Shown one piece after another: positions 2 to 21,984 of a stretch of 24,000 bases of DNA. Numbering within the stretch: position 1 is the stretch's first letter; each line of letters opens with the position of its first letter. The stretch lies in NCBI GenBank assembly GCA_038859955.1, contig JAWCEH010000004.1, positions 11,196 through 35,195 of the forward strand, given 5' to 3'. The notes beneath the pieces were generated by a model. The model was not told where the DNA came from, did not search any database, and saw only the letters and a list, made by a program, of their open reading frames with translations. The stretch is from Candidatus Bathyarchaeia archaeon. GTDB lineage: Archaea > Thermoproteota > Bathyarchaeia > Bathyarchaeales > DTEX01. The translations under genes were made by a program, and so were the position numbers.

Positions 2-1054
2 ATTTATGGAAAAACAGGTACTGGAAAAACAGCTGTGGTTAAATTTGTGCTAAACAAACTTGCTCAAAAGGCTAAAGAAATAGGTTCATCAGTTAATGTT
101 TGCTTTGTAAATTGCCGATTAGCCGGAACAGAATATAGGGTTCTTGCTTCTTTATGTACAAGCATTAATGTAAAAGTTCCATTTACAGGTCTTGCTGTTG
201 GTGAAATTTTTGATAGATTTAAAAAGAATCTAGAATCTCAAGGGATAATCTTTATTGTTGCATTAGATGAAATTGATGCACTCGTAAAAATTCGCGGCGA
301 TACATTATTATATGAACTTACTAGGATAAATGAAAGTCTCCAAGAGAGTAAAGTTTCTATTATAGGAATATCCAATGACCTAAAATTTAAGGAATTTCTT
401 GATCCTAGAGTTCTAAGCACATTAAGCGAGGAGGAAATTGTTTTTAAACCTTACACAGCTGACGAACTTCAAGATATACTTATGGAAAGAGCCAAAATAG
501 CATTCTATAACGGAGTTTTAAGTGAAGGGGCTCTTAAATTATGTGCTGCTTTAGCAGCCGCTGAACATGGCGATGCAAGAAGAGCGCTTGATCTCCTAAG
601 AGTTGCTGGTGAAATTGCTGAGCGAAAGGGTGATGGAAAAATTACAGAGTTTCATGTACGTGAGGCTCAAGAGAGAATTGAGCATGATCAAGTTTATGAA
701 AGCATAAAAAGTTTGCCAACTCACTCGAAAATAGTCCTTCTAAGCGTTACCTTTCTTAACAAGTATGATTCAAATCGAACGATGACAGGAGACATATACA
801 ATTTATACTCGGAACTCTGTGAGCAACTAGGCATAAGCCCATTAACACAAAGGAGAGTTAGTGGATTGATTAATGAACTAGATGTAATGGGGCTCTTAAA
901 TTCACGTGTAATAAGCCTTGGACGATATGGGCGGACAAAAAAGATAACTTTGGGGATTCCACGAAAAGTTATTTTTGAAGTTTTCTCTGAAGATGAGAGA
1001 TTTAAAGGTTTAATAAATTATAAACCTAGGTATTTATCTTCATTATCCAAATAA
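2..1054 (+). CDS. cdc6: Orc1/Cdc6 replication initiator, 5'-truncated by the window edge
   Basis: The frame is open from base 2 and reads IYGKTGTGKTAVV, a Walker A motif, so the track's GTG at 35 is internal. Other motifs: Walker B IFIVALDEID, sensor-1 IIGISND, sensor-2 GDARRALDLLR, and a C-terminal winged-helix-like tail. Confidence 0.9.
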   Translation: MYGKTGTGKTAVVKFVLNKLAQKAKEIGSSVNVCFVNCRLAGTEYRVLASLCTSINVKVPFTGLAVGEIFDRFKKNLESQGIIFIVALDEIDALVKIRGDTLLYELTRINESLQESKVSIIGISNDLKFKEFLDPRVLSTLSEEEIVFKPYTADELQDILMERAKIAFYNGVLSEGALKLCAALAAAEHGDARRALDLLRVAGEIAERKGDGKITEFHVREAQERIEHDQVYESIKSLPTHSKIVLLSVTFLNKYDSNRTMTGDIYNLYSELCEQLGISPLTQRRVSGLINELDVMGLLNSRVISLGRYGRTKKITLGIPRKVIFEVFSEDERFKGLINYKPRYLSSLSK

Positions 1055-1063
1055 CTCCGGTTC

Positions 1064-2599
1064 TCATATTGCTGAAGTGAAATCTACTGAAATAACTTGC
1101 AATGTTTGTAAATCTACAATTGGAACTATACCCGGATTCGGTATATGGCCCATCTCTTTCTGATATTCAGTTTGGCCCTGCCATGCACCTGAATTCACTA
1201 CAAGTATGCCACGATAAGTGCTATATTTCATCATGTGTACGTGTCCGGCGTGAAATATATCAGGCACATGTTCTATAACTAAGTGATCAACCCTCTCAGA
1301 GGCTATTAAAGTTCTCATACCATAAATTGGAGCTAAATGCCTGCATTGCAAAAGAATCTTCATAGCTTCGTCAGGATCTTGAAAGCTCATGTTAGGAGCT
1401 GCTGAAATCACGTCATCTAAACTTCGCCCATGAGTTAGAAGAATACTAACACCATGTAGGCTTACAACAGATGGGTCACCTAAAAAATGTATTCTACCGA
1501 TGTCGTAAAGAGGTTCGGCATACTCTCGCATAATTGCAGGTTGAGGAAGAGCTCTTCTTGTTGCATCATGATTTCCAGGTATAATTATCACTTCAATGTA
1601 GTCTGGAATCTCCTCAAAAATTTTCGCCGCCATCTTATACTGTTTATAGAGATCTTTTATTTCCAACTCCTCATACTGCTGAGGATATATTCCAACGCCA
1701 TCAACAATATCACCGGCCACAACAAGATATTTAATACGATTTCTCAGTTCTTTGATGCCGCTTCCACCAGTCTCTCCTCTCAACCATTTTATAAAGTGCC
1801 TAAATTCCTTCTCCATAAACATTTTACTTCCAATATGCAGGTCTGATAATAAAACCGCGCAAACAGGTATTGGAGATTTATTAGGTTTTTTCGATGGAAT
1901 ATCTGGTAGCGCTACATCTTCAATTATAAGCAAGTCGTTTTTTCCACGTAAGGCATTTACACAAATAACTTGATCTAAAAGAATTCTTTGAGCCTTTAAA
2001 TATGCATTATGATTTTCGAACGGTGCAAATACTGTTACTTGATTATCTAGATCCTCAACTCTAAAGAAAATTCCACGTTTAGTTTCACGTTTATCAATCA
2101 CCATGCAGATAACTTTTACTTTAGAATTCTCTGGAGCCTTTAAGGCATCCGCTATACTACCAGCATCCCTAGCATCAACACGACTTCTTATTATCCTACT
2201 GATTTTTCGAAAGCGACTTCTAAAATATTCTACGCAGTCCTCCAAAGACCCGGTTCCACTTATCTTCTCAGTGGGGTCGCTTATTACCTCTATATCAGAC
2301 TCGATATCTTTTGCATAAGGCTGAAAACCTGTCTTTCCGGTGATTTCATATGCAATTTCAGTTCTCTTACTCCCAAATACACCTAATTCTTTCATCTTTT
2401 TTTCCAGAATTTCACGTGTTATAAATAGTGGCTTTTCTGGAAGAGAATTAACTTCTTCAATGACTTTTTCAACCAGAAATTTTAAATCGGTTTCTTGCAA
2501 TTTTTCTCTTAAAAATTCAAAGGCTTCTCTATCAATTTGATATCCGGACTCTATCATCAAAGATAGAACGTTTTTAATGTTTTCTTCCCGCTCTGACAT
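1064..2599 (-). CDS. polB: DNA polymerase II (PolD) small subunit DP1
   Basis: 511 aa with calcineurin-like phosphoesterase motifs VVAGDIVDGVGIYPQQ, IIIPGNHD and FHAGHVH, plus the typical DP1 N-terminal helical region and OB region. It converges on cdc6 with only a 9-nt gap. Confidence 0.9.
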   Translation of the reverse strand: MSEREENIKNVLSLMIESGYQIDREAFEFLREKLQETDLKFLVEKVIEEVNSLPEKPLFITREILEKKMKELGVFGSKRTEIAYEITGKTGFQPYAKDIESDIEVISDPTEKISGTGSLEDCVEYFRSRFRKISRIIRSRVDARDAGSIADALKAPENSKVKVICMVIDKRETKRGIFFRVEDLDNQVTVFAPFENHNAYLKAQRILLDQVICVNALRGKNDLLIIEDVALPDIPSKKPNKSPIPVCAVLLSDLHIGSKMFMEKEFRHFIKWLRGETGGSGIKELRNRIKYLVVAGDIVDGVGIYPQQYEELEIKDLYKQYKMAAKIFEEIPDYIEVIIIPGNHDATRRALPQPAIMREYAEPLYDIGRIHFLGDPSVVSLHGVSILLTHGRSLDDVISAAPNMSFQDPDEAMKILLQCRHLAPIYGMRTLIASERVDHLVIEHVPDIFHAGHVHMMKYSTYRGILVVNSGAWQGQTEYQKEMGHIPNPGIVPIVDLQTLQVISVDFTSAI

Positions 2600-6121: not shown

Positions 6122-8218
6122 GTGGTTTTTTATTTGGGGGTGAAATGTATAGGAAAAGAATACTTTAAAAGTCCAATAGTTGGAGCATATCTGCATATTC
6201 TACCGATGATAAAAAGTCGAGAGGAGATTGACAAATACTTACATGCTATTAAAAATGCTAATGCCACTTGCATCTGGGCTTTTGTAGGAGGCGTAGATGT
6301 TACTTTACTTAAGTATTTTATGGATAAAGCCTACGAGATGGGCTTAAAGGTTACTCCAGTATTACAACCATTTGTGTCTATTAGTGAGCATCCTGAGGTA
6401 AAAATTGTTAATGCTGATGGAACAACATCTGATGATCCCCGTTACTCTAATATTGGATGTTTTAACCATCCTTACCTCTTTGAGGTTTCGAAGAAATTAG
6501 TAAAGGACTTTTTAGAAAATTTCAAAGATCATCCAGCCCTTTATCGCATTGGAGGGGCTCCCCTCGTAAGCTTTGTTCATGAAGCGTACTACCGGAATGA
6601 TGTACCTGAATTTGGAGGAGGGCCATTAAAACCATGCTGCTATTGCAAATACTGTGTAGAGGATTTTAAGGCAAGAATGAAGGAGAAATATGGAAATGTT
6701 GAGAGTTTCAATGCTAAACATAAAACTGGGATTAAAAGCTGGGATGATCTTGAGCCACCAAAGGATAAGAGCAATGCTTCACTCTGGAAGAAATGGTTTG
6801 ATTACCACGCTGAAATTATACCTAACTTTCTGGAGAGACTTATAAAGTACGCCAGAAGCATAACTCCAGTTCTCGCCACACATGAATTAAACGACTTTTA
6901 TCCGTGTACATATCAGTGTGTTTATTCGGGCAATGATATATGGAGAATGGCCCGCGTAATCGACATTGGACATGAGGATATGTATCCCCTAGAATTTGAC
7001 CATAGATATGTTATCTACATCTTTGAATACATAAAAGACATCGTAAGATCAGCCATGGGATTTAATAGGCTCTACACTGGTAATGGGCAGAGCTTCGATT
7101 CTTGGCTGGGCTACAAAATACCCGTAGCAAGCATGTTTGAGCAAGTTTATTCGACGTTAGCTCACGGTGCACTAGGCATAGTTTGGTGGGTTGACTGGAG
7201 GAATCTAGAATTGTGGGCCCAAACATCTCAGCCCAATAGCGAGTATGCTCGCCTAGTATCTGCTTTAAGGAGTTACGAGTTAACTAGGGCTGAGGTGGCT
7301 CTTCTTTATCCATGGACTACAATGCAGCTGAAAACTGACGATAACTATCCTATGGACAATCTACTCTTTTACACAGCTTTGGTGAGAAGTGGTTTTCCAG
7401 TTGATGTCATCTCGGAGGATCAAATAGTCAATGGTGTGCTAGAAAACAGAAGATATAAAGTGCTCTGCACGATCGGAAACTCTACGCTTCCGATAGGCGT
7501 AGTTCAAGAAATAAAGGAGTTTGTGAGAGAAGGAGGCACATTAATAGCAGACTATGAGGGAGTCAGCATAGACGAATTCGCCTCTGCTTATCCGAACCTA
7601 GTAAACCAAACATCAGAGGAACATGTTATATACAAGATAGAAACAAAAATTCCCTCATTAAGCGGCATGAATGGAACTATAATACCAGTTGAAAATACTT
7701 GTGAAGAATTAAATGTACCATGTAATGCCGAAGTAATAGCGAAATATGAGGATGGAAAACCAGCCATTATAAAGTTTCCTGACGGTAGAGGCCGAGTTAT
7801 AAAGGCTGGTAGCTTTTTAGGTTGGGACTACTCGAATTATCCAGGGCATTACGATTTTGCAGTAATGTTTCCATTTCTCATAAAAAGAAATGAAAAGGTT
7901 AGAGAATTAATATCTGGCCTATTAAAGGATAGTGGTGTTCATCCACCCGCTGAGTCTTCAAACCCAAATGTCGAGGTTGCTGTTTGGAGAGGAAAAGGGT
8001 GCTTTATTGTTCTAGCAGTTAATCATTTGAATGAGAAATTAAAAGCAACTCTTAAAGTAAGAGTCGATATAGCGGAACAGTATGAAGTTAAAGACTTCTT
8101 TACGAGAACTATTATAAATTCGGAAAAACATGGAAATATGATAGCCTTCAAAATAGAGCTTTCAGGCTTTCAAGGAAAACCTTACTTAATAGAAGGTGAT
8201 ATTAATGGAGGCATCTGA
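6122..8218 (+). CDS. GH42-like glycoside hydrolase (beta-galactosidase family architecture)
   Basis: The segment SFVHEAYY...PCCYCKYCVEDFKARMKEKYGNVESFN...SWDDLEPP mirrors the GH42 pattern NE...CxCxxC..F..WL..YG.I..LN...W.E...P. The upstream NIGCFNHP supplies the fourth Zn-site Cys. The central GATase1-like region (VALLYPW...VDVISEDQI...YKVLC...FVREGGTLIAD) matches the GH42 trimerisation domain. A GTG start is assumed. Confidence 0.7.
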   Translation: MVFYLGVKCIGKEYFKSPIVGAYLHILPMIKSREEIDKYLHAIKNANATCIWAFVGGVDVTLLKYFMDKAYEMGLKVTPVLQPFVSISEHPEVKIVNADGTTSDDPRYSNIGCFNHPYLFEVSKKLVKDFLENFKDHPALYRIGGAPLVSFVHEAYYRNDVPEFGGGPLKPCCYCKYCVEDFKARMKEKYGNVESFNAKHKTGIKSWDDLEPPKDKSNASLWKKWFDYHAEIIPNFLERLIKYARSITPVLATHELNDFYPCTYQCVYSGNDIWRMARVIDIGHEDMYPLEFDHRYVIYIFEYIKDIVRSAMGFNRLYTGNGQSFDSWLGYKIPVASMFEQVYSTLAHGALGIVWWVDWRNLELWAQTSQPNSEYARLVSALRSYELTRAEVALLYPWTTMQLKTDDNYPMDNLLFYTALVRSGFPVDVISEDQIVNGVLENRRYKVLCTIGNSTLPIGVVQEIKEFVREGGTLIADYEGVSIDEFASAYPNLVNQTSEEHVIYKIETKIPSLSGMNGTIIPVENTCEELNVPCNAEVIAKYEDGKPAIIKFPDGRGRVIKAGSFLGWDYSNYPGHYDFAVMFPFLIKRNEKVRELISGLLKDSGVHPPAESSNPNVEVAVWRGKGCFIVLAVNHLNEKLKATLKVRVDIAEQYEVKDFFTRTIINSEKHGNMIAFKIELSGFQGKPYLIEGDINGGI

Positions 8219-9941
8219 ATACAGGAAAGATTACAAAAACTTTAATGTGGCAATTTACTGCCGAATCTACGATGTGCTTAGAATGACTGACCCAATATGG
8301 CTTGAAAAATCATTTAGTGAGATAAACCGGTTCATTAAATTCAACAAAGTATACATTGAGACCTTTCGTGATATGATCTTAGCCGACAAGGAAACTTTGC
8401 TGAAAATCAAAGACTTCTTCGAGAGGAAGGGTATTAGGGTTTCTGGCGGCATATGCACAGTTATGAATGAACGTGAATGGATGAGAACTTTCTGCTACTC
8501 CAACCCAGATCATGTAGATAAAATTAAGGAGATAGTTGCCTATACCTCTGAGATTTTTGACGAAGTAATTTTGGATGACTTTTTCTTCACAAACTGTAAA
8601 TGTGAGCTCTGTGTTAAGCAAAAGGGTGAGGAGAGCTGGACAAAATATCGCCTAAAAATATTAGTAAAGACCGCTGAAGAGTTAATTAGGGTTGCAAAGA
8701 AGGTTAATCCGAAAGTTAACCTGATAATTAAGTATCCAAATTGGTATGAGCATTACCAGTTTCTGGGCTACGACTTAGATGTGGAATCCAAGATTTTCGA
8801 CATGATATATACGGGAACTGAAACAAGAGATCCCGAATATACTTATCAGCACCTGCAACCGTATCAAAGCTATCTAATTATGCGCTATCTTGAAAACGTT
8901 AAGCCTGGAAAGAATGGTGGAGGATGGGTTGACCCGTTTGCAAGAAGAGTTATGGATTTATTTGCTCAGCAGATTAGACTTACATTGTTTGCTAAAGCCA
9001 AGGAAATTACATTATTCTGTTATGATGTTCTAATAAGGCCAGCTAAAGGAATTGACGGCTCTCAAAATGTCATTAGTACTGTTGCCCACGTAGCTGGCAA
9101 TACGCTTGAGGATATCGACGCTATACTACATCATTTAGGTCAACCCATCGGTGTTCCATGCTATAAGCCCTATAATTCCTCATCTGGGGAGGACTTTTTA
9201 CCTAATTATTTTGGTATGATGGGGGTACCCTTAGATCTTAGACCAGATTTTCCACGAAATGAAAAAACAATATTTCTAACAGAAAACGCGAAATTTGACA
9301 ACGAAATTATCGAAAAAATTAAGGAACATTTACTTCAAGGTGGAAACGTTATTATTACCTCTGGATTACTTAAAGCCCTGCAGAATAAAGGTCTGTCAAG
9401 CATCGTGGAGGTTGAGTGCGCAGACAAAAAGGTTTTAGTTAATAGGTTTTCGAGATTCATGTTCGCTGATGTATACCAATCTGACACTGATATTTTAATT
9501 CCTCAAATAAGATATCCAACTAACGATGTTTGGGAGATTATTACGTGCTTAAGTAAAGGCAATGGATATCCATTACTATTGCGTAGCCAGTATGCTAAAG
9601 GTATACTATACATACTAACAATTCCAGATAACTTTGGGGACTTATACCATTTGCCACAAGAGGTTCTTACAGAAATACGAAGAGTCTTAACTGGGGATAT
9701 CAAAGTTTACATTGAGGGTCCGAGCAGAGCATGCTTATTTCTATACGATAATAATACCTTTATAATTGAGTCATTCCTACCGCACTTCTTAAGATGTAAT
9801 GTTGTAGTAAAATCTAGAGGCGCCAAACTCTATGACTTGATTCTAGATAAGGAATTCGAAGGCTCAGAAAGAGGTGAAGAAACGGTCTTCCCAGTATTTG
9901 TAGAACCTCATCACTATAGAATCTATAAATTCAAAATTTAA
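8205..9941 (+). CDS. Divergent GH42-like paralogue: TIM barrel with a CxCxxC Zn site plus a GATase1-like domain
   Basis: FCYSNPDH followed by VILDDFFFTNCKCELC reproduces the GH42 Cys4 pattern. The C-terminal part (IFLTENAKF...LLQGGNVIITSG) resembles the GH42 middle domain. The start was re-called to ATG 8205, which follows GGTGAT by 4 nt, giving a 14-nt overlap with the upstream gene. Confidence 0.55.
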   Translation: MEASEYRKDYKNFNVAIYCRIYDVLRMTDPIWLEKSFSEINRFIKFNKVYIETFRDMILADKETLLKIKDFFERKGIRVSGGICTVMNEREWMRTFCYSNPDHVDKIKEIVAYTSEIFDEVILDDFFFTNCKCELCVKQKGEESWTKYRLKILVKTAEELIRVAKKVNPKVNLIIKYPNWYEHYQFLGYDLDVESKIFDMIYTGTETRDPEYTYQHLQPYQSYLIMRYLENVKPGKNGGGWVDPFARRVMDLFAQQIRLTLFAKAKEITLFCYDVLIRPAKGIDGSQNVISTVAHVAGNTLEDIDAILHHLGQPIGVPCYKPYNSSSGEDFLPNYFGMMGVPLDLRPDFPRNEKTIFLTENAKFDNEIIEKIKEHLLQGGNVIITSGLLKALQNKGLSSIVEVECADKKVLVNRFSRFMFADVYQSDTDILIPQIRYPTNDVWEIITCLSKGNGYPLLLRSQYAKGILYILTIPDNFGDLYHLPQEVLTEIRRVLTGDIKVYIEGPSRACLFLYDNNTFIIESFLPHFLRCNVVVKSRGAKLYDLILDKEFEGSERGEETVFPVFVEPHHYRIYKFKI

Positions 9942-13095: not shown

Positions 13096-13536
13096 TTACT
13101 CAATTTTTTGTTCTTCAATCGAAATATCAAATAATTCATTAATGCTCTTATTTATTGTTTCAAAAGCTTTCTGCTCAGTATCCTCTTTAGTAGACATTTC
13201 TTTAAGGCTTTTGAGAGCATCGTCCTTAAGTTTCATTTTGAGTAATTTATTATCCTTAATAAATATAATTAAGATTGATTCTCCTTCCCTAACCGTGATG
13301 TTTCCTTTTCCCATAGTGCATCCTGTAGCGACTTGAATCCCATCGACGAGACAAGAATATGGCGGACTAGGTCTAGTTTCAACGATCGCTTTTGTCCTAA
13401 AGTAATCTTTTCCTAGAACTCTATTAGCAAATAATCCGGCCTTTAAGCCCAATATAAGGAATGGGCCGAGATGACCATGGAATTTCACAGCTTCATTTAA
13501 CAGCGCACTTGTAATTTCGTCATACATGCCATTCAA
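13096..13536 (-). CDS. FmdE-domain protein (formylmethanofuran dehydrogenase subunit E family)
   Basis: Motifs: AVKFHGHLGPFLILGLKAG and CLVDGIQVATGCTMGKGNI. A GGAGAGG Shine-Dalgarno lies upstream of the ATG. Confidence 0.75.
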   Translation of the reverse strand: MNGMYDEITSALLNEAVKFHGHLGPFLILGLKAGLFANRVLGKDYFRTKAIVETRPSPPYSCLVDGIQVATGCTMGKGNITVREGESILIIFIKDNKLLKMKLKDDALKSLKEMSTKEDTEQKAFETINKSINELFDISIEEQKIE

Positions 13537-13576: not shown

Positions 13577-13602
13577 ATAAAAAAGTGTTACTGAAAACAC
13601 TT
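13577..13602 (-). terminator. Hairpin plus T-run after the PriS-like gene
   Basis: The minus strand reads AAGTGTT-ttcagt-AACACTT followed by TTTTAT, giving a 7-bp perfect stem (13583-13589 paired with 13596-13602). It starts 26 nt after the stop at 13628. Confidence 0.45.
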
Positions 13603-13627: not shown

Positions 13628-14482
13628 CTATTCCTTTTGCAGCCACTCCATTATTTGCTTATCTAATGGTTTTGCTTTTCGTTTTTTCCGTCTAGGTTTA
13701 AATGGGTATCCACCTACCGCCCTATACGCTGCTTCTGCAAGTTTATCAGATTCTCCATCAATAAATTCATGCCAATTAGGGTTATGTCTAAAAATATGTG
13801 GGCTAGTCCATTCAGGCGTAAAATTTTCAAGTTCTTCCGGCTTCATGCATATGCATACCGCATCTAGTTCTCGATGCAAACTTAATGGACATGTGAAGAC
13901 TCTAGTTGGATCCATTTTATTCTCCACAGTTATTCCACCCTTAGGTGATAACTCTATAAGCTTTGAGGAAATCTTTGAATTTACGTACTCAACAATGGCA
14001 TATGCTAAATCTAAAGGATTATATTTTTCTAGCAGGTCTTCTGATATGCTTCTTTCGTTTATGTGAATATGGCATCCGTTTCCAGACCATTTAATATAAA
14101 TCGACTCTTTAATCCCGCAATTAAACAAGAATCTTACAATATCTTTAGCGACGCGAATAGTATTCTTCCAGTTTGGAAGTTCGCTGTCAATATCCCATGT
14201 GGGCGTGCAGTATATTATGTTTGACCACTCATAGAGGTCCTCAATATTTTGGAGATTTCTATAAACATTAGCCGTTGCATAGATTGATCTTAACAATTGG
14301 TTATTTAGCTTAATTATGTCCTCGGTTTTCTCCATTAAAATGGGTTTTCCTCTAATATACCTTTTAAAAACTAAACTGCCAACTGAATCTATATAGTGAA
14401 GTGCAACCCATCTACCTTTACAAAAATCTAAAATCTCTTTTTGAACATCTAAGCGCGAGTAGTGCTCATAGAGCATATTCAA
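13628..14482 (-). CDS. priS: Archaeo-eukaryotic primase catalytic subunit, PriS-like, without a Zn knuckle
   Basis: The AEP motifs occur in order: TPTWDIDSE (DxD), KWSGNGCHIHI (SGxGxH) and KMDPTRVFTCPLSLH (motif III). AKDIVRFLFNCGIKESIYIKWSGNGCHIHI aligns by eye to Pyrococcus p41 AKEIVRDTV..IHIIYSGRGYHIRV. The start is TTG 14482 (TTGA overlap with the upstream stop) or ATG 14476. Confidence 0.75.
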   Translation of the reverse strand: MNMLYEHYSRLDVQKEILDFCKGRWVALHYIDSVGSLVFKRYIRGKPILMEKTEDIIKLNNQLLRSIYATANVYRNLQNIEDLYEWSNIIYCTPTWDIDSELPNWKNTIRVAKDIVRFLFNCGIKESIYIKWSGNGCHIHINERSISEDLLEKYNPLDLAYAIVEYVNSKISSKLIELSPKGGITVENKMDPTRVFTCPLSLHRELDAVCICMKPEELENFTPEWTSPHIFRHNPNWHEFIDGESDKLAEAAYRAVGGYPFKPRRKKRKAKPLDKQIMEWLQKE

Positions 14483-15270
14483 GGTATTTCGGCTTCCCTT
14501 CTCTCGGTTGCTCTTTGAATTCGTTCCATAACGTGTTTGGGTAGAGATATATCTTCCTTTCTCATATCAATTGGCTTAACGATAGTTAAACCTTTTCCAG
14601 GCAATATCGCGATTTCATACATTTGTAGACTATGATTTGTTTGCCGCATCTTCTCTATGAGTACATAGCGCTTTAGAACCCCGTTTCTAACGGTTCTTCT
14701 AAATCTAATTATGCCATCAGCTATATGCTCTACACCCCAACCAAAAGCTTCGGAAGTTGTTATAGCATACTGTGATGTTGCCATAACCGTGAAATCCCAT
14801 TTAAATAAAACCTTCTTCACAAAATACGAGTATCTCCTAGCCATAGCTGGTTTATCGAGCCAAAATGCTGAAAGTGAATCGATAACGAGGCGGGCTCTGC
14901 CATAACCTAGAGTTTTCTTCGCTTCTATAACTTTATTCACAAGTTCCTCAATCTCTAAACTTTGGAGTGACCATTCATCCTTAGTCCCCATTAATGCATC
15001 AATAATTATTATTTTCTTTTCAGATATTCCCTTGTAGAAGTCGAAACCAAATTGTGCTGCCTGTGTAATGATTGACTCGCGGCTCTCCTCGGTTGTTACG
15101 TAGATGCATTTATCTCCCTCAATTATTCCTTGAGCAATAAAATGTATACAGAGGATGGTCTTACCAGTGCCTGGTTCTCCGGTAATAGCCACTGTAAAGC
15201 CTTTCGGTATTCCACCCTCAAGCATAGCATCTAAATCTGGAATGCCAGTTGACAAGCGCTCAATAAGCAT
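14479..15270 (-). CDS. Single-domain KaiC/RadB-type RecA-superfamily ATPase
   Basis: Motifs: RLSTGIPDLDAMLEGGIPKG, Walker A GEPGTGKT, Walker B RLVIDSL, and the typical KaiC-like tail LIEKMRQTNH...YEI...KGL. Confidence 0.85.
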   Translation of the reverse strand: MLIERLSTGIPDLDAMLEGGIPKGFTVAITGEPGTGKTILCIHFIAQGIIEGDKCIYVTTEESRESIITQAAQFGFDFYKGISEKKIIIIDALMGTKDEWSLQSLEIEELVNKVIEAKKTLGYGRARLVIDSLSAFWLDKPAMARRYSYFVKKVLFKWDFTVMATSQYAITTSEAFGWGVEHIADGIIRFRRTVRNGVLKRYVLIEKMRQTNHSLQMYEIAILPGKGLTIVKPIDMRKEDISLPKHVMERIQRATERREAEIP

Positions 15271-15347
15271 CTCTGATCAACTCTCTACAGTAGTAAAAAT
15301 AACCTTTAGGCGCTCTAAAACCTTACTGACTAATTATTTAATGATCA

Positions 15348-15971
15348 CTACTGAAAAACACTTGGCTTTATATTTAAATAAACTAAAGGACCCCTCTCCT
15401 TCGGTAGCCGTGCTATTCTAGCGCTAATAGCGTTATACATGCTTAATGGATCTAGCACTATCGGTTTCGTGTCTTTACTGGTCTTTTGAATGCGCTTAGC
15501 TATCTCCTCGACTATTAAGTTTTCAGCTATGAACTCAATCATGCATACCTCGTTTTGATTCACAAGTTTTCTAACGGCTATGCTCTTTAATTCAGATTTG
15601 TAATCCATGTCTTGATATATTCTCCTTGCTCTCCTAATATTTTCTACATAATCTGGTGGCAACTCAAATTTTGTTGATAAAACCCTCACTCGCTCCCGCC
15701 ACTTCTTAAGCCACATGCCGGCCCAAAAGTTTATCGAAGTCTTAAGATCCGCTGGTTTACTCTTAAGATACTCCTCAAGTTTTCTATAAACAATTCGACT
15801 ATCATCTGTGTCTAATTTAACCTTTAGCCAGGTCTCCAGATCCTTTGAAGCGTATACAACCATTTGGTAATCTAGGGTGTATGGCTTAAATTGCGGGATA
15901 TAACTCTCAAACTCCTTGATTAACAGCGAGAGAAATCTATTGCGAAAGTTTATAGCGCTCATTGAACGCAC
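15348..15971 (-). CDS. Hypothetical protein, predicted mostly helical, no motif recognised
   Basis: A 207-codon ORF in the same orientation as the ATPase-primase pair, 77 nt upstream of it. The start is GTG 15971 or ATG 15962. A TTTTAAATT TATA-like box lies about 40-50 nt upstream. Confidence 0.6.
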   Translation of the reverse strand: MRSMSAINFRNRFLSLLIKEFESYIPQFKPYTLDYQMVVYASKDLETWLKVKLDTDDSRIVYRKLEEYLKSKPADLKTSINFWAGMWLKKWRERVRVLSTKFELPPDYVENIRRARRIYQDMDYKSELKSIAVRKLVNQNEVCMIEFIAENLIVEEIAKRIQKTSKDTKPIVLDPLSMYNAISARIARLPKERGPLVYLNIKPSVFQ

Positions 15972-16033
15972 TCACACAACATTTTAATAATGCGTGAAGC
16001 GGAATTTAAAAGTTGCTGATGAAACATAAATAT

Positions 16034-16960
16034 TCACATTTCATCTTTAAAGTTACAAATATCGCGTGGCAAATCTGATAATCTTGGAAGCCCGTCCCTC
16101 GCCCCCATTCTTGTTAGGCACCTTGAAGCAACAAAGTTTCCTAAAAGACCGCACTCTTTGAGGTTTTTTCCTTTAAGAAGCCCATAAATAAAGCCGGCGC
16201 AGAAAGCATCGCCAGCACCAGTTGTATCAACAACTTCAACTTTAAATGGCTCAATTAAATGGCTTTCGCAGCCATCTGTGACATAACAACCCCTCTCCCC
16301 CAACTTAACTGCCACAATATTTGCTCCTTCTTCGAGTAAGGTTTCCGCGCCCTCACGGTAATCTTTACCTGTTAAAAGGCGTACCTCACCTTCACTTGGA
16401 AGAACGGCATAGCATCTTTTTATAATAGGTTTAAGGGCATCTAGACCCTTATGCGCATAAATAACCCCTGGGTCAAGCGTTATTTTAACCTCTGAAATTT
16501 TCTCCACAATTTTCTTTTGAGCTTCAAAGGGCACCTCGCCAGCGAAGGATGTTAGATGTAAGATTTTTGCATCTCTTACATATTCAAGATTAATTTCATC
16601 GTATCTCAATGTATCGTTGACGCCGGGATCCAAGTATAATGCTCTTCTCCCTTTTTGGTCAACGAAGCCTATAACTGATCCACTTCTGCCAGTTTTAGAG
16701 ATAATTATACCATTTGTGTCAACCCCTTCATCTATGAAGGATTTTAGGAGGAATTCGCCCTCTCTATCCTCCGCAATCTTACCAATGTAGCCTACCTTTA
16801 CGCCGAGCCGTACTAAACCCACGGCTGTATTTGCAGCTGAGCCACCTGGGGTTTCCTTAAAATCCAGTATTACACTCTCTTCATCGGCTCCAGCTAACCT
16901 ATCAACTTTATAAAGTTTATCGACATTTAATGCTCCAAAACAGACTACTTCAAGTTTCAT
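16034..16960 (-). CDS. PfkB-family carbohydrate/nucleoside kinase
   Basis: PfkB signature 1 is [16 protein letters not shown] and signature 2 is [16 protein letters not shown]. Its ATG overlaps the Ftr TGA (ATGA). Confidence 0.85.
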
Positions 16961-17862
16961 GATAATATCTCTCTCAGGTAGATTATATATTTGCCAAGTT
17001 TCCCACCATAGTTTCCAGCTGAAATTCTAACAACCCCCTTGACGGATGAGGCAGCTTTGATGCCAACTTTTATTGCTTCTTTAACAGAATCTAAGGTCAG
17101 TCCATTAATCACTATCTCTGGTATATAGCGAACTCCCTCTGGAACTTTCGATTCCATACCGAGTTTACTTTTAAGTGAAGGGCAATAGGGATGGTTTGTT
17201 GTTGGACCTATTTGTGGGAACTTTGTCTCAGGTTTTGAGCCCGCTGAGCATATATCAAATGGGGTGACTACACCCTCAACGTGGCTTATGGCTTTTAGAA
17301 CCTTTCTTCCAGCCTCTAAAACAACCCTCTTTGTTCGGCACATATACCAGAAGTTTCCGCCCATAACCCCACGGCCATAACCTATGAAGCGCTCAATTTT
17401 AAAGTCGGGGACCATTATTGGCACAATTATCATTTCACGCCCATATTGTTTCTCGATCCACTCGTATCCGTCACCACAGTGTCCTATCAACTCTAGAGTA
17501 TCTATTTTACCTATCGGGCTTGGACAAGCATCGAAAACTGCTGTAAATGGCTTAACAAGTATATCTTGCCTAACTCTGTAAGAAAATTCTCTATAAAACT
17601 TTTTAATGACTTCTTCGATAGGTTTTCTCTCGTCTACTCCGCTCCAGAACTGCAGTATTACACCTAAGCGTCCATCTGGTGTCTCATTTTTCGGAACCCA
17701 GCGTTCAATCCCACCTTCAATCCGACCTATAACTGTTGAAGGTGTTGCGGTTGAGTCTTCAGCAGCTCTCATGAGAATGCCTTTATCGTTTGCAGTGACA
17801 AGGACTCTAAAGTATAATCCTTCAAAGGCTTCCACATAAGTATCTTCAATAAACACATTCAT
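16957..17862 (-). CDS. ftr: Formylmethanofuran:tetrahydromethanopterin formyltransferase family (Ftr or an Ftr paralogue)
   Basis: It is collinear with Ftr throughout: [43 protein letters not shown] and [24 protein letters not shown] Shine-Dalgarno lies 4 nt upstream of the ATG. Confidence 0.85.
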
Positions 17863-19149: not shown

Positions 19150-20561
19150 AACTGTTTCCTCAAGAGTTCCATATGCATTATGCTTCGCTCAATATGCTCC
19201 TTTGAGGCTATATCTGTCCTATACCAAAGAGCTCCTCCCTTAATGGCCTTTATTCCCTCCATGGCTATTTCACGTGCGCTTTGAATGTCATCGCCAATGC
19301 CAACGGTACATACTGCTCTAGAAGACAGCGCGTATGTTTTCCCATTCTCACGAATCTCCATTGAACCTGGATAAACTCTAATATTATCACCATGTTTGGT
19401 TGATAGCTTTTCAGCCGACTCTAGGATAACTGGCGTGCCTATCTCGCTCTTATTAACTAGGTGTGGAAAAGCGTCTATATAGCCGCCATATTTGGGGGGA
19501 ACCTTATAAATTACAACAGCAGCCTTCTCATCAATATTTACACGTGTTAGAGTCCCCTCAATCATTCTAAAGCATATCTCAACAAAATCATCTTTTAAAA
19601 GTGATAGGATTGGTATTATCTCCGGGTCGCCTGGCCTACTATTATTTTCCAGAATCATTGGCCCCTTACTCGTGTGTATAAATGCTTCGTAAAACGGTAT
19701 CCCCCGAAGACTTGGATTCGAGCTTCCACCCCTAAGCTTCTCAAATATTTTCTCAACAATAATCCTCTCTTTCTCCCAATCCTCAGTTCTCATGAATGGC
19801 AAAACATATCCCCTATCTTTATATGTGCCCATGCCGCCAGTGTTTGGTCCTCTGTCACCATCGAAAGCTCTTTTATAGTCCCTCGTTTCCGGCAATGGAA
19901 CGATATGTTTGCCATCGCAAAAGGCCTGAAAACTTGATTCCTCACCCTCAATTTTCTCCTCAACTATAACTGGCCCAAACTTAAAGTTGGCTAAGAAGTG
20001 CTCTAAAATTTCCTCGCGAGTATTAAAGTGATCTCCCCAAACTCCAACGCCCTTACCGGCAGCAGGAGCATCTGGTTTAACAGCCACCTTATTCTCGAGT
20101 TCATCTAACCATTTAAACAAGTCCCTTTTGACATCATCTAGATCCCTATAGTCTTTAGGGTCAAAGACCTTAAACCTCGGATTTACCTCCGGGGCAACTT
20201 CCTGAAAGAGTGTCCTCTGTGCAACCTTGCTCTTTTCAAGAGCATAATCCTTAGTTGGGCAGATTATTGGAATGTGAAGTTTACTCTCAATTAAATCCCT
20301 TACGCCTTCGATTATTGGCTTTTCTGGGCCAACTATTCCGAAGTCAATTTTATCCTTATGCTTTTCAGTAAAACTGTATATGGCATTAACATTGAGATCC
20401 GGGATTACAACATGCTCTTTAGCCCTATTAACATTAAATGGATTTCTCTGCTTATCAGCAATATAGAGCTCAACAGTGTACTCTTGGCTTCTCATGAAAG
20501 CATCAACCATAGCAGCCTCCCTAGAACCATAGGAAATGACGAGAATGCCAACGCGCTCCAT
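19146..20561 (-). CDS. purD: Phosphoribosylamine-glycine ligase (PurD)-family ATP-grasp enzyme
   Basis: Motifs: GPEKPIIEGVRD, VKPDAPAAGKGVGV and the GARS signature-like SRPGDPEII. The start was re-called to ATG 20561 (MERVGILV), which follows GGTGAT by 4 nt. The track's TTG at 20579 is probably an over-extension. Confidence 0.8.
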   Translation of the reverse strand: MERVGILVISYGSREAAMVDAFMRSQEYTVELYIADKQRNPFNVNRAKEHVVIPDLNVNAIYSFTEKHKDKIDFGIVGPEKPIIEGVRDLIESKLHIPIICPTKDYALEKSKVAQRTLFQEVAPEVNPRFKVFDPKDYRDLDDVKRDLFKWLDELENKVAVKPDAPAAGKGVGVWGDHFNTREEILEHFLANFKFGPVIVEEKIEGEESSFQAFCDGKHIVPLPETRDYKRAFDGDRGPNTGGMGTYKDRGYVLPFMRTEDWEKERIIVEKIFEKLRGGSSNPSLRGIPFYEAFIHTSKGPMILENNSRPGDPEIIPILSLLKDDFVEICFRMIEGTLTRVNIDEKAAVVIYKVPPKYGGYIDAFPHLVNKSEIGTPVILESAEKLSTKHGDNIRVYPGSMEIRENGKTYALSSRAVCTVGIGDDIQSAREIAMEGIKAIKGGALWYRTDIASKEHIERSIMHMELLRKQL

Positions 20562-20775
20562 CAGTATCACCACTTGCAATCTATTAGATTTAGTAATTCA
20601 TCTACGTAAAAGTTTTATGAGTCCGTTACAATCTCCCTGAAATTAAAGATAGGGGTTCTTTCCTCCCTTATCACAACTGAGCTTCGACTAGATCAGTTAT
20701 TACCTTGGAAGATAGCAAGTCTTTTAAGGATACCATGTATTAAAGAAGGAATTGGTTAAAGAGGAAAGATGCCTT

Positions 20776-21984
20776 ATGAAAGATCCCCCTGCAGTAATCG
20801 GTGTAGGTAGAACTAGATTTGGTGAGCATTACGAGCTGGATCCAGAAGACTTGATTGATGAGGCTGGCTTAATGGCTTTGGATTCTGCTGGAATAGAGCG
20901 CAAAGATTTAGATGCCTGCTTTATTTCAGACTATCTTTTACAAGTTACTAACAAGATAGGTTTAGAGGAGGGGTTCATATCTCAGCTACTAGAGATGAAT
21001 GTACCCATTGAGAGGATGAGATCCTTTAGCTCAGCGCTACTTAATGCCTGTAATGCCATAGAAGCCGGCAAATACGAGGTTGTTCTCGTTGGTGGGATGG
21101 AAAAGATGACCGATAGATGGAGTAAAATTAGGGATAACTTAATGCTCCTTGTGGATCACTGGAGCTACTATGCTGGTGGGACGCCTGAAACTAATCATGA
21201 ATTGCTTCTTAGAGAATATATAAAGGAATATAATATACACGGTGACGACCAGCAGAAGCTCATGACGACGCTTGCCCACATATCCGTTAAGAACCACCGT
21301 AATGCAGTATGGAATGAATATGCGCATTTCCGTAGGGAAATAGATGTCAAAAGGGTTTTTGCAGCTAGGGCTGAAGAGCGAAAAACTCTAGGGTTATACG
21401 ATTTTGCTCCTATATCCGACGGTGCAACCGCCCTGATATTAGCAAGTCCCCGAAGGGCTAAGGAATACACTGATAACATGGTATATGTTCTTGCCTCATC
21501 TCTAGCAACAGATTTCATTTCATATCCATCTAGGTCGCATAGAGCCGGTTTCATTGCAAGTAGGATAGCTATGGAAAAAGCCTTAAAAATGGCGAATATA
21601 AGCCTAAATGACATAAAACTGCTGGAGGTTTACGATCAATCAACAGTTCTCGAGATGATATCGCTTGAAGATCTAGGTTTTGTCGAGAAGGGTACTGCCT
21701 GGATAAAACTCTATGAGAATTTTGAAGACTTTAAGGGGTTCTACGATGCTGACGGAAAGCAAGTTTACGTGAATACAAATGGCGGATTGAAAGCTGATGG
21801 AAACCCGCTTGGTGCAACAGGTGGGGCGCAGGTCTTTGAGGTTGTGAAGCAAATTAAGGGTGAAGCGGGTCAGAGACAAATTAAGCCGGATGGCGATCTA
21901 CTTTATGGCTGTGTTCAAGAGATCGAAGGTTTTGGAACAAAAGTTTACGTTCATATTTTAGGGAGGGAGAAGAGTGGGCAGTGA
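20776..21984 (+). CDS. Thiolase-like protein (archaeal SCP-x type) with an apparently degenerate active site
   Basis: Thiolase-fold motifs are present: VVLVGGMEKMTD, PISDGATALILAS and NTNGGLKADGNPLGATG, the last being thiolase signature 2 with His replaced by Asn. The start was re-called to ATG 20776 (MKDPPAVIGVGRTRFG). Confidence 0.8.
   Translation: MKDPPAVIGVGRTRFGEHYELDPEDLIDEAGLMALDSAGIERKDLDACFISDYLLQVTNKIGLEEGFISQLLEMNVPIERMRSFSSALLNACNAIEAGKYEVVLVGGMEKMTDRWSKIRDNLMLLVDHWSYYAGGTPETNHELLLREYIKEYNIHGDDQQKLMTTLAHISVKNHRNAVWNEYAHFRREIDVKRVFAARAEERKTLGLYDFAPISDGATALILASPRRAKEYTDNMVYVLASSLATDFISYPSRSHRAGFIASRIAMEKALKMANISLNDIKLLEVYDQSTVLEMISLEDLGFVEKGTAWIKLYENFEDFKGFYDADGKQVYVNTNGGLKADGNPLGATGGAQVFEVVKQIKGEAGQRQIKPDGDLLYGCVQEIEGFGTKVYVHILGREKSGQ

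Follow-up and report, generated by a model that had tools for sequence, protein, structure and literature searches.

In a 24,000-nucleotide stretch of Candidatus Bathyarchaeia DNA (contig JAWCEH010000004.1, positions 11,196 to 35,195 of the forward strand; hereafter the window), the minus strand carries a gene for a stand-alone protein with the fold of the archaeo-eukaryotic primases (AEP), immediately downstream of a gene for aRadC, a KaiC-like ATPase of the RecA superfamily and a paralog of RadA. These two genes form a conserved two-gene operon. Judged from the sequences, the AEP would belong to an uncharacterised family whose conserved partnership with a RadA paralog is new; the searchable literature contained no published mention of the AEP family or of a pairing between a KaiC-like ATPase or RadA paralog and a primase. 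We read the pair as a chromosomal, vertically inherited aRadC-AEP operon for DNA repair or damage tolerance, and we give this reading about an even chance of being correct.

The aRadC and AEP genes are adjacent across Bathyarchaeia and beyond

Three minus-strand open reading frames (ORFs) of 284, 263 and 207 aa sit where an earlier reading of the bare DNA sequence (the original prediction) had placed them. The 284-aa AEP (13628-14482) is 100% identical to NCBI QXU95_03285, and the 263-aa aRadC (14479-15270) lies directly upstream of it. The AEP start had been said to overlap or abut the TGA of the ATPase gene. Indeed, the junction reads ...CCT TGA ATA TGC..., and the TTG start (14482-14480) and the TGA stop (14481-14479) share the four letters TTGA (14479-14482, minus strand). 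An alternative ATG (14476-14474) lies 2 nt past the stop.

Scanning GTDB at one genome per species yielded 74 loci, which come from Bathyarchaeia, Nitrososphaeria, Aigarchaeota/Caldarchaeales and a few metagenome-assembled genomes (MAGs) labelled Methanomethylicota. A metagenome scan added 80 more, and 157 loci were analysed. The original prediction had proposed that the ATPase and the primase belong to one module, and the order of the two genes is indeed conserved: aRadC stands directly upstream of the AEP gene, on the same strand and within 80 nt, in 132 of the 157 loci, amid unrelated housekeeping flanks. On three long Bathyarchaeia contigs, aRadC is followed by AEP with overlapping ends in wholly different neighbourhoods. 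Furthermore, the pairing holds down to AEP identities of 37-41% and aRadC identities of 64-69%. A start codon overlapping the aRadC stop could be used at 118 of 131 adjacent loci, 65 of which have the same 4-nt overlap as the window, and the two genes are probably translationally coupled.

The other loci fall into three classes. A gene is inserted between aRadC and AEP in 11 of the 157. In one subclade the insert is an alpha/beta-hydrolase gene, in L036 and L044 it is a small ORF, and L013 and L021 contain additional ORFs as well. Five loci end at a contig edge. The last nine lack aRadC in the sequence covered; seven of these offer just 1.0-1.5 kb upstream, and the clear exceptions are L074 and L080. 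The alpha/beta-hydrolase-like insertion encodes ~250 aa on the same strand (L008:5150-5896; also L009, L013, L014, L019, L021, L094, L096 and L104); it abolishes the start/stop overlap and leaves the gene order intact.

The ATPase is an ortholog-level match to SSO2452

The 263-aa product had been described as a single-domain ATPase of KaiC/RadB type with the motifs GEPGTGKT and LVIDSL. Both motifs are present; GEPGTGKT is the Walker A motif (residues 31-38; 15157-15180, minus strand) and is conserved in SSO2452 of S. solfataricus. The KaiC-like part of the description also stands, as PF06745 matches with an E-value of 2.9e-55. RadB does not: the protein scores 34.4 bits on TIGR02237 against a cutoff of 172.4, and 29.9 bits on NF006861 against a cutoff of 278. 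By curated cutoffs it belongs instead to the aRadC/SSO2452 family, with 375.7 bits on TIGR03881 (KaiC_arch_4; cutoff 247.8). It aligns with SSO2452 (PDB 2w0m) at E 5e-101 over 228 residues (query 3-230), and by sequence it is an ortholog-level match to this RadA paralog of Sulfolobales, known as aRadC, RadC1 or 'Rad55'. Circadian KaiC, which has two tandem domains and ~500 aa, was rejected as well, since the window protein is a single 263-aa domain and scores 83 bits on TIGR02655 against a cutoff of 546.

The window aRadC and SSO2452 are alike in having a single domain, the same Walker A and Walker B motifs and the same TTEES motif. They differ at the C-terminus, where only the window protein has a conserved 33-residue extension (residues 231-263, ...RKEDISLPKHVMERIQRATERREAEIP; 14482-14580, minus strand). 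Nothing in the 235-residue SSO2452 chain corresponds to it; the 2w0m alignment stops at residue 230 of the query and residue 229 of the chain. Among the AEP-linked aRadC copies, those of Aigarchaeota included, the extension is conserved, and it may serve as a docking element. The two proteins also differ in gene context: the window aRadC is operon-coupled to AEP, whereas no such coupling is mentioned in the SSO2452 literature retrieved. At two loci the aRadC gene is interrupted by an intein (L036:2570-5056 and L064:448-1689); the L036 product has 828 aa and is similar to an intein/LAGLIDADG-containing match.

SSO2452 is linked to DNA by previous work. The protein binds single-stranded DNA (ssDNA) more tightly than RadA, inhibits D-loop formation and has ssDNA-dependent ATPase activity, properties that within the family are known for SSO2452 only (PMC8708640); it is a candidate interactor of the ssDNA-SSB complex (PMC8708640, PMC10003305); and genetics implicate its S. 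islandicus orthologue, RadC1, in DNA repair (PMC8708640, PMC10003305). RadA paralogs of the aRadC/SSO2452 type are conserved in Thermoproteota, and the retrieved literature gives them an 'antirecombinase' effect in vitro and a genetic link to repair, with no defined pathway.

A KaiC-like ATPase could also act as an autokinase or signalling hub that switches the AEP by phosphorylation or nucleotide-state-dependent binding, and would then not act on DNA at all. The KaiC signature of aRadC would fit such a regulatory pair, with the TTEES catalytic glutamates and the strong PF06745 match, as would the conserved tails on both proteins, and archaeal KaiC homologues have been proposed as signalling hubs (Makarova et al. 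2017, as cited in PMC6393860). However, previous work describes the orthologue SSO2452 as a RadA paralog that binds DNA, and the pair has no linked sensor, MEDS, helix-turn-helix or kinase-partner genes. We therefore regard this explanation as improbable.

The partner is a compact AEP without a Zn knuckle

All three AEP catalytic motifs are present in the 284-aa protein in canonical order, as had been recognised from the sequence, and all are encoded on the minus strand. Motif I is WDIDS (residues 96-100; 14183-14197), which supplies the metal-binding D97 and D99. Motif II is SGNGCHIH (residues 133-140; 14063-14086), which contains H138. Motif III and its flange, ENKMDPTRVFTCPLSLHR (residues 187-204; 13871-13924), contain D191, R194, S201, H203 and R204, and the motif III core DPTRVFTCPLSLH corresponds to residues 191-203. 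In an alignment of 37 AEP homologues of 52-73% identity (alignment A1), D97, D99, S133, G134, G136, H138, D191, R194, S201 and H203 are invariant, as are C137 in motif II and R204 in the flange. Among loci with enough coverage, motif I is retained in 150 of 153, motif II in 153 of 153 and motif III in 141 of 142. Since the whole catalytic set is invariant over ~150 loci, the sequences argue for retained catalysis in the short, aRadC-coupled AEP. Besides C137, three further cysteines (C198, C210 and C212) are invariant or nearly so in the short form of Bathyarchaeia, and all four positions are Ala, Val or Ile in the longer relatives described below; the four residues may form a metal or disulfide site close to the active site that is specific to this lineage.

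The assignment to the AEPs, with their alpha/beta (RRM-like) catalytic fold, also comes from structure. The AlphaFold model of the protein (mean pLDDT 89.8, pTM 0.85) has as its best Foldseek match in the PDB the Prim-PolC of M. smegmatis (6sa0; E 1e-8, TM 0.63), and among the matches listed all 59 at E <= 1e-3 are AEPs. They rank in the order Prim-PolC, LigD polymerase domains, archaeal and eukaryotic PriS/Pri1, and CRISPR-associated Prim-Pol, with TM values of 0.55-0.63 for Prim-PolC and LigD-Pol versus 0.46-0.51 for PriS/Pri1. The sequence itself matched nothing in Pfam, NCBIfam, PHROGs or PADLOC, and nothing among PDB sequences even at E <= 10. The protein had been called a PriS-like primase. 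The AEP fold and motifs bear this out in part, but the protein fails PF01896 and TIGR00335 and folds closer to Prim-PolC and LigD-Pol than to PriS.

The absence of a Zn knuckle had been noted correctly. The interval between motifs I and II is 33 residues long with a single Cys (C122), and residues 102-121 are modelled as one helix; a canonical Bathyarchaeia PriS has a Cys-rich insert at that place. At the flange of motif III, T197 is invariant where the RLIRLVGTLH of this Bathyarchaeia PriS (archaeal PriS motif RLIRLxxxLH) has its second Arg, with the invariant R194 and R204 on either side. From its spacing, this second Arg would be the motif IV Arg/Lys of PriS.

The protein ends in a basic linker and a C-terminal helix, KPRRKKRKAKPLDKQIMEWLQKE (residues 262-284; 13631-13699, minus strand). 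In the AlphaFold model, a linker of low pLDDT is followed by a helix over residues 273-283 with the motif PLDxQIxEWL. It resembles a PCNA-interacting protein (PIP) box in the form DxxIxxWL, with D274, I277, W280 and L281 invariant in the Bathyarchaeia members. Of 116 Bathyarchaeia members, 114 (98%) show the pattern h-x-x-aromatic-hydrophobic within their last 15 residues, versus 13% of background ORFs. Compared with the PIP-box consensus Qxx[LIM]xx[FWY][FWYL], the tail has D in place of Q. Its partner may be PCNA or aRadC.

The pair exists beside a canonical PriS and PriL

By Pfam, neither PriL nor PriS is encoded elsewhere in the 24-kb window, in agreement with the earlier observation that it contains no PriL-like gene. 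As a PriL probe, ~260 residues of Gerd_aPriL1, which groups with Bathyarchaeia PriL (PMC12770985), were rebuilt from the published alignment (PMC12770985 supplement). This probe recovered about 2,000 PriL homologues, several of which are labelled 'DNA primase large subunit PriL [Candidatus Bathyarchaeia archaeon]' by NCBI. One of the homologues (P0516, on JAVZNE010000001.1) has PCNA just upstream and a PF01896 PriS gene ~9.5 kb downstream, whose called product of 405 aa is cut by the locus end. The second scaffold of the same MAG, JAVZNE010000002.1, carries an aRadC-AEP pair (L053). The original prediction had proposed a search for a second priS and for priL; both were found on another scaffold of a pair-bearing MAG (JAVZNE01). 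In the metagenome scan, no contig was common to the AEP loci and the PriL matches.

The arrangement of the canonical genes recurs on three sister contigs (L084, L086 and L168), which read PCNA-PriL ... PriS-Gins51. L168 belongs to an NCBI Bathyarchaeia MAG. The other two, from JGI and Logan, are unlabelled; their PriL proteins group with the labelled ones. PCNA stands immediately upstream of PriL, and PriS immediately upstream of Gins51 8-10 kb away, with a glycosyltransferase cluster between them (L084:9232-11035 and 19260-21014; L167; L168). The complete PriS proteins of the sister contigs score 157-184 bits on TIGR00335 (cutoff 143.5), and the L084 PriS, translated in full, has a Cys-rich Zn-knuckle insert.

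Canonical PriS and the AEP have in common the catalytic fold and the order of motifs I to III. In contrast to canonical PriS (arCOG04110, TIGR00335, PF01896), the AEP matches none of the hidden Markov models, lacks the Zn knuckle and is ~80-120 residues shorter than the Bathyarchaeia PriS recovered. PriS adjoins Gins51, whereas the AEP adjoins aRadC.

The less exciting alternative offered by the original prediction was that the AEP is simply the host's only replicative PriS in an unusual operon. The AEP motifs and the lack of any other PriS or PriL in the 24-kb window would agree with this, but JAVZNE01 has PCNA-PriL and a PF01896 PriS in addition to the pair, which refutes the idea in that MAG. 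Moreover, the complete PriS proteins of the sister contigs pass TIGR00335, whereas no NCBIfam model matched the window AEP or its L053 orthologue, and BLASTP of the AEP against Bathyarchaeia PriS gave a non-significant E-value of 0.15. That the AEP is the sole PriS of its host is barely credible.

Relatives of the AEP with and without a C-terminal domain

A search of 1.8 billion representative proteins with the family profile gave 172 relatives in five groups. The first comprises the short forms of ~285-308 aa. The second consists of long forms (420-500 aa) from Ignisphaera, other Thermoproteota and Nanopusillus/Nanobsidianus, whose C-terminal domain contains no Cys (GRFQVMGLLQAARYY...KSFGLNRAIFYAWAK). 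The third, of Njordarchaeales type, has a different C-terminal domain, and the fourth contains long forms without the DxD and the motif II His. The fifth, reached at E 1e-9 to 1e-4, consists of proteins with both PF01896 and PF04104, which are the fused PriS-PriL primases described for DPANN archaea (PMC7414124, PMC3914693). Single distant profile relatives also carry an MCM or a D5_N helicase-type domain, one member each. The 284-aa protein therefore represents an undescribed branch of the AEP superfamily that is nearest in sequence to monomeric primases and nearest in fold to single-chain repair polymerases.

The single-chain repair polymerases Prim-PolC and LigD-Pol, bacterial AEPs of NHEJ and gap filling that gave the best structural matches, resemble the window AEP in consisting of a single chain with neither Zn knuckle nor PriL. 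They differ from it in sequence, with 11-16% identity and no PF21686 match for the AEP, and in setting, as the AEP occurs in archaeal hosts with no ligase or Ku neighbour. Among the monomeric primases, those of the NEQ395 type share with the window AEP a compact catalytic domain (residues 1-281 of NEQ395 versus 284 aa), and the fused PriS-PriL primases of DPANN archaea lie within reach of the AEP family profile at E about 1e-9 to 1e-5. In NEQ395 of Nanoarchaeum equitans, the PriL-like [4Fe-4S] C-terminal domain is needed for priming, and the catalytic domain alone (residues 1-281) has no primase activity without it (PMC10250227). Whereas NEQ395 has this [4Fe-4S] domain, the window AEP has just a 23-residue tail and no PF04104 match; and whereas NEQ395 is the sole primase of its host, the window AEP is an extra one.

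The long forms of the family are more closely related: their AEP domain is 36-43% identical to that of the window protein and scores 250-336 bits on the family profile. They carry, in addition, a C-terminal domain of ~160-200 aa that the window AEP lacks and that matched neither PDB sequences (best E 0.34) nor Pfam. The aRadC neighbour is missing in four of four long-form loci, namely two from Ignisphaera (L005 and L006), one of Njord type (L082) and one catalytically dead form (L083). Because the long forms stand without an aRadC neighbour, linkage to aRadC goes with loss of the C-terminal helper domain. From this pattern the RadA paralog might be the obligate partner of the AEP across Bathyarchaeia, Aigarchaeota and Nitrososphaeria, replacing the PriL/PriX-like helper domain that the long forms kept, and the pair would then be a second, PriL-independent machine for priming or repair synthesis. 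We put this forward tentatively and think it rather less than likely. If true, it would make a RecA-fold ATPase an accessory subunit of a primase and give the obscure aRadC a concrete biochemical job.

Two members of the long-form group, P0149 and P0271 (from Nanopusillus and Nanobsidianus stetteri, labelled 'Eukaryotic-type DNA primase'), score 262 bits on the Bathyarchaeia profile. They carry the Cys-free C-terminal domain of crenarchaeal type, unlike NEQ395 and the other DPANN fused primases, in which it is PriL-like with a 4Fe-4S cluster. The monomeric primase type has been treated as unique to, and a synapomorphy of, the clade of nanosized archaea (bioRxiv 10.64898/2026.06.17.729505). The two proteins would sit awkwardly with a synapomorphy of a single type, and their sequences hint at exchange with crenarchaeal hosts. 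The long-form and DPANN relatives bear on the origin of monomeric primases in nanosized archaea.

The dead long forms (P0194, P0196, P0218, P0222 and P0225; for example L083:5001-6308) keep the C-terminal GRFEVMALLQAARYY domain almost unchanged, and by sequence they look like catalytically dead AEPs retained for a structural or regulatory role. Their existence implies non-catalytic use of the scaffold somewhere in the family, and it could be asked of the window AEP, too, whether it is a DNA polymerase or primase in vivo or rather an RNA-repair or nucleotide-signal transferase, or a structural adaptor for aRadC. AEP domains do occur in RNA-repair systems (PMC5862659), and the window protein has its invariant Thr at the position of the canonical PriS Arg. 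Yet the catalytic set is invariant in the short, aRadC-coupled form over ~150 loci, and the top fold matches are all DNA primases or polymerases, so that a role outside DNA synthesis appears quite improbable.

A further possibility is an alternative primosome, in which a KaiC/DnaB-like ring of aRadC translocates on or unwinds DNA and the AEP acts as a primase dedicated to it, as in T7 gp4 or DnaB-DnaG, for replication restart or as a second priming system. KaiC-related RecA-fold ATPases do form hexamers (PH0284, PDB 2dr3, six chains), aRadC has weak profile similarity to DnaB_C and to phage primase-helicases, the two genes are strictly coupled, and there are the single distant relatives with an MCM or D5_N domain. 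On the other hand, helicase activity is not reported in the SSO2452 literature retrieved, where the protein is an ssDNA binder that inhibits D-loops. The AEP has neither Zn knuckle nor helper domain, and NEQ395 cannot prime de novo without its helper domain. In addition, the canonical MCM-associated machinery is present, as PriS-Gins51 and PCNA-PriL. An alternative primosome is thus unlikely.

The operon has a chromosomal setting

The window derives from a Candidatus Bathyarchaeia MAG, and the neighbours of the pair are chromosomal: CofD, a nitroreductase, an FmdE-like protein, a PfkB-family kinase, Ftr, PurD, a thiolase, Cdc6/Orc1 and the small subunit of PolD. The GC content of the aRadC-AEP module (0.36-0.39) lies inside the range of the 24-kb window. 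AEP relatives were absent from 72,556 plasmids, 50,697 phages and IMG/VR, and a BFVD search with the AEP returned only generic AEP fold matches.

The original prediction had considered a domesticated plasmid or virus replication cassette, of which the collections searched gave no sign; this origin was rejected on the lack of relatives in the plasmid, phage and IMG/VR sets and on the varied housekeeping flanks. More broadly, the pair could be a domesticated or resident mobile-element or defence cassette, either a replication module of a plasmid or virus or an anti-virus system. A mobile-element origin has been proposed for fused and monomeric AEPs, HEPN/NTase or DndB genes lie near a few loci, and the fold has a generic similarity to viral AEPs. 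Against this stand the empty plasmid, phage and IMG/VR searches, the lack of a PADLOC or PHROG match, flanks that are varied, housekeeping and free of integrases, and a GC content in keeping with the window. Furthermore, identity falls steadily from Bathyarchaeia to Aigarchaeota with the pairing retained, as vertical descent would give, a trend read from identities and not from a tree. We consider a mobile or defence cassette very improbable.

A possible role at single-stranded DNA

The near-obligate operon with a catalytically intact AEP leads to the hypothesis that a RadA paralog brings a specialised primase-polymerase to ssDNA or controls it there. Because the pair exists beside a normal replicative primase, a role in repair or damage tolerance is probable. 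Under this reading, binding of ssDNA, which SSO2452 performs in vitro, would place aRadC at gaps, stalled forks or recombination intermediates, and aRadC would recruit or gate the AEP. Contact could be made through the 33-residue extension of aRadC and the basic linker and PLDxQIxEWL helix of the AEP. The AEP would then extend 3' ends or fill gaps; re-priming by the AEP is also conceivable if aRadC takes the place of the absent helper domain. Alternatively, the PIP-like C-terminal peptide might tether the AEP to PCNA. Many members of Bathyarchaeia, an uncultured lineage abundant worldwide, encode the AEP family, which exists alongside canonical PriS and PriL; its window member goes undetected by Pfam and NCBIfam.

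Several points count against a repair operon of this kind. The physical interaction, the substrate and the pathway of aRadC and the AEP are ones that we infer, and for the interaction the inference draws on operon structure and conserved tails. The AEP family is known here from sequences and predicted structures. The 'antirecombinase' role of SSO2452 does not by itself require a polymerase. Nucleotide binding by the AEP may be atypical, because the invariant T197 stands at the position of the second Arg. PCNA binding by the tail is uncertain, because the PIP-like aromatic residue is not kept in the Aigarchaeota members. The co-occurrence of the pair with PriS and PriL was observed on two scaffolds of one metagenome bin. 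Finally, no ligase or Ku gene was present in any locus inspected, and the pair lacks a linked gene for a ligase, Ku or a nuclease.

A 204-aa neighbour travels with Ftr and PfkB

The third ORF (15348-15971, minus strand) had been reported as a 207-aa protein, 77 nt upstream on the same strand and a possible member of the module. Its position and the 77-nt gap were confirmed; its length and its membership were not. The ORF reaches a GTG at 15971 and most likely starts at the ATG at 15962, which gives 204 aa (15348-15962), as homologues start there and the NCBI model has 204 aa. The family comprises 92 clusters, all from Bathyarchaeia, and only in the window's closest clade is the gene placed between PfkB and aRadC. 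At a distant member the order is Ftr-PfkB-p207 with GAPDH next on the opposite strand, and neither aRadC nor AEP is there. Since this order persists even where the aRadC-AEP pair is missing, the gene travels with Ftr-PfkB and stands outside the module.

The AlphaFold model of this protein is all-helical (pLDDT 85). Foldseek found no match for the fold in the PDB (best E 0.7, TM <= 0.22), and Pfam gave no match either. A sub-threshold match to a RadC N-terminal model reached 19.5 bits against a cutoff of 134. The original prediction had raised the question of whether the protein is a PriL N-terminal domain, PriX or GINS homologue. It is none of these by profile or by fold, and all three were rejected on these grounds and on the synteny with Ftr-PfkB. 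The order of Ftr, the PfkB-family kinase and the 204-aa protein occurs both in the window (15348-17862, minus strand) and in a distant member of Bathyarchaeia (L081:4132-6609). The protein has many invariant Trp and acidic residues and could be a novel factor connected with C1 or sugar-phosphate metabolism.

Flanking signals and other genes of the window

The 77-nt intergenic region upstream of aRadC (15271-15347, minus strand) contains an A/T-rich GGTTATTTTTAC ~25-35 nt before the ATG, and a promoter of the pair's own is possible there. Downstream, a weak hairpin and a run of six T (13579-13600, minus strand) follow 28 nt past the AEP stop. A hairpin plus T-run had been thought to close the unit. 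The T6 is there, but the stem (13585-13600, GTGTT/AACAC) is merely 5 bp with two G-C pairs and was not called by the terminator scan, and an intrinsic terminator was rejected for these reasons. The T-run is a more credible archaeal termination signal than the hairpin and likely acts as an oligo-T terminator. Directly downstream of the module lies a gene for a small FmdE-domain protein (13096-13536, minus strand), which is syntenic with the module in the closest clade only (for example L007, L010, L011, L015, L017 and L035).

Elsewhere in the window, a 581-aa ORF with no Pfam match (8196-9941, plus strand) overlaps the end of a GH42-like beta-galactosidase homologue (6122-8218). At the window edge, which cuts its N-terminus, the Cdc6/Orc1 gene (35-1054, plus strand) stands tail-to-tail with the gene for the PolD small subunit DP1 (1064-2599, minus strand), whose domains are DNA_pol_E_B and Metallophos; the two are ~11 kb from the aRadC-AEP module. 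The association of cdc6 with polD is familiar in other archaea. A replication origin may lie just beyond the window.

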